A DNA stretch of 9,104 bases, from IMG/VR virus record IMGVR_UViG_2667527591_000001. One strand, given 5' to 3'. This document shows positions 5,122-7,122 of this stretch, piece by piece. Numbering within the stretch: the first letter of the stretch is position 1; each line of letters starts with the position of its first letter. The position numbers and the translations under genes were made by a program. Source of the DNA: a virus. Taxonomy: Monodnaviria; Loebvirae; Hofneiviricota; Faserviricetes; Tubulavirales. A model generated the notes under the pieces. That model was not told the origin of the DNA, did no database searches, and was given only the letters and a program-made list of their open reading frames with translations.

Positions 5122-7122
5122 TCAGGGACAGTTATTGTCACAAGTCCAAGGGTCGGCTTCGCCGCCCCCACCCGCCGCGCGGGAGCGCGTCGTGCGGTGT
5201 CGTGAAGCCGACGAAATAAACACAGATTCATAGCTGCTGCCGCTTCTGACTTCCTCTGCGCGGATTTTTTCTGCGGGGGTCATACGGCGGACAACACAGC
5301 CCATAAAACGGGTTATGACCGGAACAGGGCCAAACATGAAACCGGAAATCACCGGTGCGCAGGGTTCACCGTAACGGTTAAAACGGGGTTTACCACCTTC
5401 CTGCGGCTGAACGTAAAAAGGACGAAGCAGACGTTCAGAACAGAAGAAACCGCCGTTCAGCAGGATATAGGTCCGGAAATCGCCTGCATCACAGGCCATG
5501 CGGATGGCCTCCAGTTCGGCGACCTGCTGCGGCGTGAACTGCTGCATATTGATATGATGTGCTTCAAGCGGTGAACGAAAAGTACGCATCTGGCGGTAAG
5601 CCGTGACGGACGGAACGCCAAAGAACTGGAACAGGCGAAGGCGCGTTGCTTTCTGCCAGCAGGCGGCACGGCTGACGGCATCACAGAATGAACGGGCAGA
5701 ATAACGGTCATTCAGGGCGGTAATACCATCCGCACTGACATCACCCGCCATTTTGGTGATGTACTTCACGATGTAACGGAAACCATCACCCTTTTCAGGG
5801 TCAATAGCCTCAATACGAATACGGTGCTCTTTCGCCCCCTTTTCATCCGGCTCATCGCGCATGGCCTCTTCACGGAAAATGGCCAGCACCGTTGCGCTCT
5901 CATGGGGATTGCAGTAAATCAGGAAATTCCAGTGCGTTGTACCGTCAGCATGAGGCTCGACCGTGCGCAGACCGGGTATCTGAATACCGGCTTTATCCAG
6001 TCTGCGGCAGACCCGACGCCAGACGGTATTCAGCCAGGCGTGCGAATCCTTAACGGTCGGGCAACCTGCTTCCCACCATTTTTTATTCGGACGAGAATGC
6101 CATTTTCCGGCAACCTTAAAACTGGTCGTCGGGTGAAAACGTGACGGCGTGGTGAGCACGATGAAGTAACCGGACAGCCCCATATCTTCGGACAGTTCAC
6201 AGACGGCCTTTCCACGAACGCAGAGTTCAGCAATCCGGTTTTTCGGATTCGAAACAGAGGCGTTATGCGCATCTTCCAGCGTACAGACCAGCTCATTAAA
6301 CGCATCAAAGACACCGGAGGACCGGAGATACTTTTTCACGCGTTTACTGCGGACAGCAAACAGGTCACGATGCCAGTCAGAAATATAAGGCGCGTTGCGG
6401 TTCAGTATGCCGAGCATGCGACAGACCTCATTAACCCGCTGGTCACGGACAACCCGCAGGAAACGGGTGACAAAAGCCAAATCAGTCAGACGCTTAAGCA
6501 ATCCCTCATCGCCGTAACGCTCATGATAAGTGGCATAAACGGGTGCGAAATCAAAGCCGGAGATGGCCCGAAAATAGGCCATCACATTGAGAAGGTGATG
6601 CTCTGGTACATCACTATAAATGGCCCGGGAAACAAGGCAGTCACGAACAACCGAATCAGCCACCTCAGCAATCTGCTCATCAGTGCAGAAAAGCGAGAAT
6701 TCATAAGGGTCTCCGTCCTGATTGAAGAAAGCAAAACGGTGCGCGGACTCAAGCGCCATCAGCGCATTTTTCACACCGAGCTGGTAAACCAGACGGCAGA
6801 AAGCATGCGCCACGGTGAACGAAAACGAGCCAAACTGTGATACCAGTCCGGCAGCCCTGCCCCTGTCAGCGAGAGATAAATCCGTGCAGTTAATTCCGTA
6901 AATCACACGGTCAACCTGCGTGTTACGTGGCAATGCGAGCTGTGAAGATAAGGTCCCGACCTCATCACGATACTGGCGGGAAAGCGTGGCAAGGTTGCGG
7001 GTGGCAACATCGCGCTCAGTCCGAAAATGCTCGCGTTCGGGCAGCGTCAGGCAGGGACGACCAAGGGCAACGGATGCCGCGTCGATGGCGTTATACGCTG
7101 TAAGGATGGCTGATTCAGTCAC
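5122..7122 (-). CDS. Rolling-circle replication initiation protein (HUH-superfamily Rep)
   Basis: Large ORF (699 aa from the TTG at 7221). The likely start is GTG at 7122, preceded by GGGGGGATTA; there is no in-frame ATG for about 150 codons. Motifs seen (ORF-track numbering): FIVLTTP (res 353-359, RCR motif 1-like), [13 protein letters not shown] (res 424-436, motif 2 candidate), RYIVKYITK (res 482-490, motif 3 with two Tyr, resembling the phiX174 gpA active site). Confidence 0.8.

Follow-up and report, generated by a model that had tools for sequence, protein, structure and literature searches.

The 9,104-nucleotide (nt) stretch of viral DNA analysed here in full (IMG/VR record IMGVR_UViG_2667527591_000001; hereafter the window) is the complete genome, of ~9.1 kb, of a filamentous phage (inovirus) whose genes lie almost entirely on the minus strand; this study concerns its replication gene, rep, and the origin at which the encoded protein, Rep, is predicted to act. 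We read the segment 5122-7122 as encoding the two-tyrosine (Y2) nickase of a dif-integrated E. coli inovirus, translated from GTG 7122 and carrying its own origin in the last 29 codons, and we put the probability of this reading, which draws on sequence comparison, at about 85%. The elements on which the argument turns are listed below; residue numbers are those of the 666-amino acid (aa) form, and conservation was read from alignments of 52-53 family members.

5122-7122, minus strand: rep, a predicted GPA-family HUH/Y2 rolling-circle initiator of 666 aa, starting at GTG and terminated by TGA (5124-5122).
7120-7132, minus strand: translation start, comprising a Shine-Dalgarno sequence GGGGGG (7132-7127), the spacer ATTA and GTG (7122-7120).
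6133-6165, minus strand: motif 1 (aa 320-330), aligning with FITLTAPSKYH of P2 A.
5926-5958, minus strand: motif 2, the predicted metal-binding His cluster (aa 389-399), with Asn399 in place of the second His.
5752-5775, minus strand: motif 3, YIVKYITK (aa 450-457), with the predicted catalytic tyrosines Y450 and Y454.
5236-5751, minus strand: conserved folded C-terminal region (aa 458-629), with a predicted local distance difference test score (pLDDT) of 77-96, also present in the P2/HP1 gene-A proteins.
5125-5235, minus strand: low-complexity, predicted-disordered tail (codons 630-666), pLDDT < 50, overlying the origin DNA.
5152-5212, minus strand: hairpin of the predicted origin, an imperfect, GC-rich stem-loop of 61 nt (GTCGGCTTC...GAAGCCGAC) separated from the core by 2 nt.
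5128-5149, minus (rep) strand: origin core TTGGACTTGTGACAATAACTGT, the predicted nick site, forming the last 8 rep codons.

Rep matched the Pfam family PF05840 (Phage_GPA) at E 9e-49, scoring 166.7 bits against a cut-off of 31.4 and covering profile positions 73-316 of 321, and it matched PHROG 91 ('nicking at origin of replication') at E 1e-128, in an alignment that reached the C-terminus of the protein. Both matches are well beyond chance, and P2 A and phiX174 A also match PF05840, the latter at E 4.8e-62. The same Pfam search gave no match at E <= 1 to Phage_CRI (PF05144), the family of Ff pII, or to Rep_trans (PF02486), and only a weak one, below the cut-off of the model, to the shared catalytic core PF23343 (REP_ORF2-G2P; E 0.0054). 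No NCBIfam model matched Rep, and a sequence search of the PDB returned nothing at E <= 1. Megablast of rep against deposited phage genomes gave no match, relatives being found only at the protein level, where the family is big (1912 representatives after clustering at 50%, E <= 1e-3). The initial annotation of this gene, made without database searches, had proposed a phiX174/P2 gpA-like rather than an Ff pII-like protein and had named profile searches as the check; these searches indeed assign Rep to the P2/phiX174 gene-A family and not to an unrelated one. As judged by its sequence, Rep is a rolling-circle replication initiator of that family. A relaxase or IS91-type transposase, as another reading of a Y2 nickase, was rejected in view of the family to which Pfam assigns Rep and of the complete set of inovirus genes around it. 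Rep had also been called unusually large; at 666-699 aa it is large compared with Ff pII, but its size is normal for GPA-type inovirus Reps, such as those of fs2 (716 aa), pre-CTX (709 aa), Dolos (714 aa) and VFJ (orf698), and for the enterobacterial homologues (649-727 aa in ~35 proteins).

The open frame on the minus strand occupies 5122-7221 and would yield 699 aa from TTG 7221 or 666 aa from GTG 7122. The early proposal that translation begins at GTG 7122 behind a G-rich Shine-Dalgarno sequence is supported by five observations: RefSeq/PGAP starts the same coding sequence there (WP_032269437, 666 aa, 'replication endonuclease', E. coli NZ_CM128593); ~30 homologues with 40-86% identity have their N-termini at this codon to within a few residues; other E. 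coli copies become similar in nucleotide sequence from query nt 90-106 onwards, corresponding to 7122; GGGGGG lies 4 nt upstream; and the AlphaFold2 (AF2) model is confident from residue 1 of the 666-aa form. The frame being open from 7221, translation could in principle begin upstream, at TTG 7221 or another in-frame TTG or GTG, and give a protein of up to 699 aa. The 33 extra codons, however, are hydrophobic, of low complexity and overlap the operator-like palindromes at 7148-7237; the extension that they encode is found in none of the homologues, the other E. coli copies diverge just there, and the only good Shine-Dalgarno sequence is the one before 7122, all of which makes an upstream start very improbable.

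The ORF, its length and the two-tyrosine, FIVLTTP and candidate His motifs cited in the initial annotation were all confirmed at the coordinates given there, and the family alignments document how strictly they are kept. In motif 1 (FuTuTxPS..H), T324, P326, S327 and H330 are invariant in 52 sequences, the first Thr being Val in the enterobacterial clade. In motif 3 (YxxKYxxK), Y450, Y454 and K457 are invariant and align with YIAKY of P2 A, in which the tyrosines have the identical residue numbers, 450 and 454. In motif 2 (canonically EPHxDGxxH-U-H), E389, P390, H391, D393 and H397 are invariant, and the last His is Asn399, producing the variant H-W-N. This variant is found in all ~40 members of the enterobacterial inovirus clade, from E. 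coli, Salmonella, Morganella, Providencia and Xenorhabdus and down to 40% identity. P2, HP1, fs2 and Dolos have HxH, as do most other relatives outside the clade; HxH is present in 181 of the 238 family proteins examined, and HxN occurs outside the enterobacterial clade in four proteins only. Since every member of the clade has it, H-W-N is neither an error nor a sign of decay. The replacement of the second H-U-H His by Asn could also be taken to mean that the HUH site is degenerate, Rep catalytically impaired and the prophage a defective remnant, passively inherited. Against this, H-W-N is fixed in homologues that are 40-99% identical and otherwise intact in their catalytic residues, indicating purifying selection; the four family representatives with Asn at the same position are unrelated; the genome has a full inovirus gene set; and copies of the element exist as tandem arrays and on phage-sized contigs of ~8.7 kb. 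An impaired Rep is thus very unlikely. The conserved H-W-N variant amounts to a natural experiment on the HUH metal site.

The AF2 model, built with 53 sequences, was confident over residues 1-629 (pLDDT 90, predicted TM-score 0.87), and its N-terminal region (~aa 1-270) is all-helical. The initial annotation had described a C-terminal extension of about 180 aa after the catalytic motifs, with no obvious function; in the model, 209 aa follow motif 3, of which 172 are predicted to be folded and 37 disordered. Most of this extension, namely aa 458-629, is conserved in the family, with W489, R510, G558, Y584 and G594 invariant or nearly so, and is confidently folded, and it is no unexplained appendage. 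The helical region of ~aa 1-270 and aa 458-629 are taken to be conserved accessory parts of the GPA family. The tail sequences beyond residue 629 revealed no protein-level conservation among homologues unless the DNA core was read in the same frame, and residues 630-666 are probably origin DNA read in frame and nothing more.

The core TTGGACTTGTGACAATAACTGT is unique in the window, where none is expected by chance, and matches the P2 sequence TCGGAGTCCTGTCAATAACTGT, annotated in GenBank as 'nick site at ori' and located inside gene A; the annotated nick of the P2 record falls within gcgccTCGGAGTCCTGTCAATAACTGT. The core was also found once each in HP1, fs2, pre-CTX and Dolos. Among 80 IMG/VR loci encoding relatives of Rep, 78 have exactly one core, on the rep strand, and the other strand has none. 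Contigs of inovirus size have the core at -76 to +9 nt relative to the rep stop codon, and P2-like contigs have it 145-784 nt ahead of the stop; when the window protein was aligned with P2-like proteins by tblastn, the alignments stopped at residue 666, that is, at the core. From this placement of the core and these alignment ends, we infer that the inovirus Reps of the GPA family are gene-A proteins that terminate at the origin.

A GC-rich hairpin immediately precedes the core. The 161-nt stretch 5230-5070, containing hairpin and core, had a minimum free energy of -32.8 kcal/mol in DNA folding (z -4.3), matched by none of 200 shuffled sequences. A stem of at least 5 bp ending 0-3 nt before the core was found in 51 of 54 distinct related loci, versus 84 of 270 random positions; the stem sequences vary widely between loci, and their lengths are 5-8 bp in the P2-likes and 20-27 bp in the inoviruses. 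The relation of this module to the gene also varies. In E. coli copies it is read in frame +2 (PWTCDNNxP), and 20 of the 22 core bases are retained with a Rep that is only 59% identical; the rep genes of Salmonella copies terminate within the core (..LDL*); Providencia has the hairpin and core beyond a small open reading frame (ORF), at a distance of 187 nt downstream from rep; and in pre-CTX, Dolos and the Vibrio inovirus PE001 the module begins 3-8 nt after the rep stop. Because its frame varies or it falls outside rep among relatives, the hairpin-plus-core module is, on this comparison, conserved as DNA and not as protein. The module is likely the plus-strand origin. The earlier guess that the nick site could be intragenic is thereby supported by comparison, the P2 ori core being found in the last 8 codons, although the overlap of origin and rep is limited to the last 29 codons. 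The literature searched contained no account of a hairpin plus core at the 3' end of an inovirus rep, nor of a clade-wide H-W-N, and no mapping of a GPA-type inovirus origin was found in the Dolos preprint or the CTXphi HU/UvrD paper.

A core-like sequence was also noticed in the corticovirus PM2, whose gene XII encodes the GPA-family Rep P12: at 2745-2766 (in our locus L092), 208 nt before the stop, is a weak core, TTGGAGCACTGAAAATAACTGT, with 6 mismatches. The GenBank record of PM2 places its 'cleavage site' elsewhere in gene XII (2253/2254 of the record), away from this weak core.

A different location of the origin has to be weighed, namely that the true plus-strand origin is intergenic, in the TGCA-repeat region upstream of rep or around the 339-bp repeats, and that the core is a vestige of a P2-like ancestor. 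The window does contain structured repeats at 7148-7237 and 1-1074, and in CTXphi a 167-bp ori(+) with several hairpins lies in the rstR-side intergenic region (PMC4439123). CTXphi replication has, however, been placed by a review in the unrelated Rep_trans family (PMC5714925), which makes for a weak analogy, and only 9 of 5426 complete E. coli genomes contain the 339-bp unit in full, well under the 40 that have rep. Moreover, a vestige would decay, whereas the module is retained on the rep strand in those 78 of 80 loci whatever its frame or coding status. We therefore consider an intergenic origin improbable and retain the module at the 3' end of rep as the origin.

With the origin so placed, replication might proceed as follows. 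Rep would recognise the origin, made up of the hairpin (5212-5152) and the core (5149-5128) that directly follows it, within the final 29 codons of rep. It would nick the coding (plus) strand within the core, where the counterpart of the annotated P2 nick is at or next to G5147. It would join the 5' phosphate covalently via Y450 or Y454, leaving the 3'-OH to the host polymerase and helicase; after one round, the second tyrosine would cut the regenerated core, and the strand would be resealed to release circular plus-strand DNA, destined for packaging, more replication or XerCD-mediated integration. Where prophages lie in tandem, synthesis from one ori to the next might yield unit-length single-stranded DNA (ssDNA) without excision, as described for CTXphi. 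It is to be noted that these steps are adopted from the GPA family, and that the direct observations are the homology, the motifs and the ori element.

Several points weigh against the interpretation of rep and its origin given above. That Rep nicks, exactly where it does so and what the two tyrosines do are all assigned by homology with P2, for which the nick position was itself taken solely from a GenBank feature (a single base, 29892). Alignment with the phiX174 origin (CAACTTG^ATATTAATAAC) would shift the nick ~6 nt in the 3' direction, to after G5141; this register was kept solely as an uncertainty of ~6 nt on the nick position. With the second His of motif 2 missing, metal binding by Rep is not guaranteed. 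A Foldseek search of the PDB with the Rep model gave no significant match (best E 0.15), and a sigma-70 promoter scan detected none upstream of rep. As a separate matter, a hand-picked TTGTGC/TATTAT pair was tried as the rep promoter and rejected, its score being too poor.

Among the known systems closest to Rep is P2 A, which belongs to PF05840 as do 186 A and HP1 Rep, and which exemplifies a cis-acting Y2 nickase with the ori inside gene A. The two proteins are ~26% identical over their alignment and have the three motifs in common, although motif 2 reads HWH in P2 and HWN in Rep. In P2 and HP1, as in the window, the 22-nt core follows a GC hairpin on the coding strand and is read in the same frame (..APRSPVNNCG in P2, ..APWTCVSNCN in HP1), but the hairpin has a stem of 5-8 bp in P2-likes as against 61 nt in all in the window phage. 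The P2 and HP1 proteins (761 and 775 aa) extend 80-140 aa beyond the ori, whereas the protein of the window ends just 3 nt past it; and P2 is a tailed double-stranded DNA phage, whereas the window element is an inovirus. P2-like ori recognition has also been described in the Vibrio phage PV94 (PMC3986222).

Among filamentous phages, fs2, VFJ, Vaf1, pre-CTX (where the protein is 'RstA-like') and Dolos encode Reps of the same family and size class. In these phages, as in the window, rep is the first gene of the replication module and a long hairpin plus core lies at or just after the rep stop; the proteins are 28-30% identical to Rep over ~80% of its length. They differ in that the Vibrio and Shewanella Reps keep HxH and the preceding Pro (GTPHxH), that their hosts are Vibrio and Shewanella (Dolos) rather than E. 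coli, and that the core of pre-CTX and Dolos is located outside rep, 3 nt beyond the stop.

The resemblance to phiX174 A consists of PF05840, the Y-x-x-K-Y tyrosines and an origin inside the gene (rep_origin 4306); pairwise similarity is confined to motif 3 (BLASTP E 0.055), and phiX174 A, unlike Rep, has 513 aa and an internal A* product. The phiX174 origin has just ACTTG and AATAAC in common with the core, and no abutting hairpin; when phiX174 (L094) 400-418 was set against window 5128-5146, these two blocks of the core (GGACTTGTGACAATAAC) were 1 nt out of register, and they may reflect chance or a trace of a GPA-family recognition element. The pII of Ff (M13/f1/fd) resembles Rep in role, as an HUH-superfamily nickase that starts inovirus plus-strand rolling-circle replication. 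It is a protein of ~410 aa, and the Ff origin is in the large intergenic region.

Filamentous phages with GPA-type Reps (fs2, VFJ, Dolos) and origins of the P2 type within gene A were already known, and RefSeq already labels the gene 'replication endonuclease'. The module at the 3' end of rep and the H-W-N clade are refinements of a known system and not a new kind; they do not overturn current understanding. Nonetheless, the 85-nt module (5128-5212) offers a concrete origin candidate for filamentous prophages of E. coli, Salmonella and Providencia that lack experimental study, and its assignment would permit minimal replicons or phagemids for these phages. The result also indicates that Reps of the P2 gene-A kind move together with their ori among viruses of very different types. 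A wider interpretation would combine a portable Rep-ori cassette, a non-accidental placement of the origin for cis-action and an H-x-N metal site. If true, the first part would make the hairpin and 22-nt core at the rep 3' end common to tailed P2-like and filamentous phages, and perhaps to the corticovirus PM2; by the second, set in the E. coli lineage, an origin in the final codons would maximise cis-action, the coupled transcription-translation complex freeing new Rep just where it is to nick; and the third would allow an altered metal preference or cleavage-joining balance in the enterobacterial clade. We offer the three together only tentatively and would not expect the combination to hold in full.

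The genome surrounding rep is that of an inovirus: pI/Zot, a pIII-type adsorption protein, a pVI-like protein and the pIV secretin are all encoded in the same orientation as rep. The neighbouring features are as follows.

9066-7858, minus strand: secretin/pIV (Pfam Secretin; PHROG 'protein IV of M13').
7270-7458, plus strand: divergent 62-aa ORF (phrog_2503, E 1e-28; function of the family unassigned).
7148-7237: operator-like TGCA...TGCA palindromes (repeats D1 and I1-I4), phased by 8 bp and flanked by rep and the divergent 62-aa ORF.
7221-5122, minus strand: the large rep ORF.
5091-4666, minus strand: 141-aa ORF.
Between the 141-aa ORF and the pIII-type gene in the gene list: small coat-like ORFs.
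4039-2675, minus strand: pIII-type protein with Gly/Ser repeats (Pfam Phage_Coat_A).
2675-2316, minus strand: pVI-like ORF.
2299-1088, minus strand: Zot/pI (Pfam Zot; PHROG 'protein I of M13').
1-1074: 339-bp tandem repeat.

An element 99.9% identical to the window resides in E. coli strain 100416, adjoining hipBA, with two rep copies 8739 bp apart. The rep gene was found in 40 of 5426 complete E. coli genomes, at up to 5 places per genome; the strains that harbour the element, as a prophage integrated at dif, are thus a minority. The junction of prophage and host in strain 100416 corresponds to window 7803, beside hipBA, the host side being GGTGCGCATAATGT. A dif search allowing substitutions only found nothing, and it was via this junction that a dif-like phage attachment site (attP), similar to that of CTXphi, was recognised at window 7700-7804. 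On the minus strand, a dif-like site (AGTGCGCATAA-TGTGACACGCG-TTATGTTGAAA) is followed by a GC hairpin (GGCCGCTGCG..CGCAGCGGCC) and then, in inverted orientation, by another such site (AGTGCGCACAA at 7711, plus strand). This arrangement suggests XerCD-mediated integration of a folded ssDNA attP. CTXphi has the same arrangement of dif sites and hairpin, integrates ssDNA from rolling-circle replication and obtains ssDNA without excision from tandem prophages (PMC4439123); by analogy, both the integration of ssDNA and its excision-free production could apply to the window phage.

The TGCA(A/C)..TGCA palindromes at 7148-7237, exemplified by TGCAATTGTGCA and TGCACAAGTGCA, include a 16-nt tandem repeat at 7193-7227. 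They are probably operators for a small repressor, which would make this stretch the putative control region of rep. The 62-aa ORF is a candidate for that repressor, a role suggested only by its position; an E. coli annotation has a hypothetical protein at the equivalent position. The palindromes and the 62-aa ORF together form the variable part among E. coli copies that are otherwise 98-99% identical.

A few additional features were observed in the window and in related prophages. In inovirus prophages of Salmonella and E. coli whose Reps belong to the H-W-N clade, an IS110-family (DEDD_Tnp_IS110) transposase gene lies just upstream of the rep module (L087 3648-4631, L090 4919-5872 and L091 4924-5568), which suggests an integration route unlike that of the dif-type attP of the window phage. 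Nested tandem repeats of 39/78 and 15/30 nt at window 3171-3422, in the pIII-like gene (2675-4039), encode a Gly/Ser linker (GGSSGSGGSGSGS..), and these linker repeats of the adsorption protein likely differ in length between copies. Rfam had no family match anywhere in the window, the 339-bp repeat included. This repeat, at window 1-1074 between the Zot/pI and secretin genes, comprises 3.2 copies that are 99% identical and ~60% GC; its full unit occurs at up to 30 places in one E. coli genome, and most related prophages retain just its first 57 nt.

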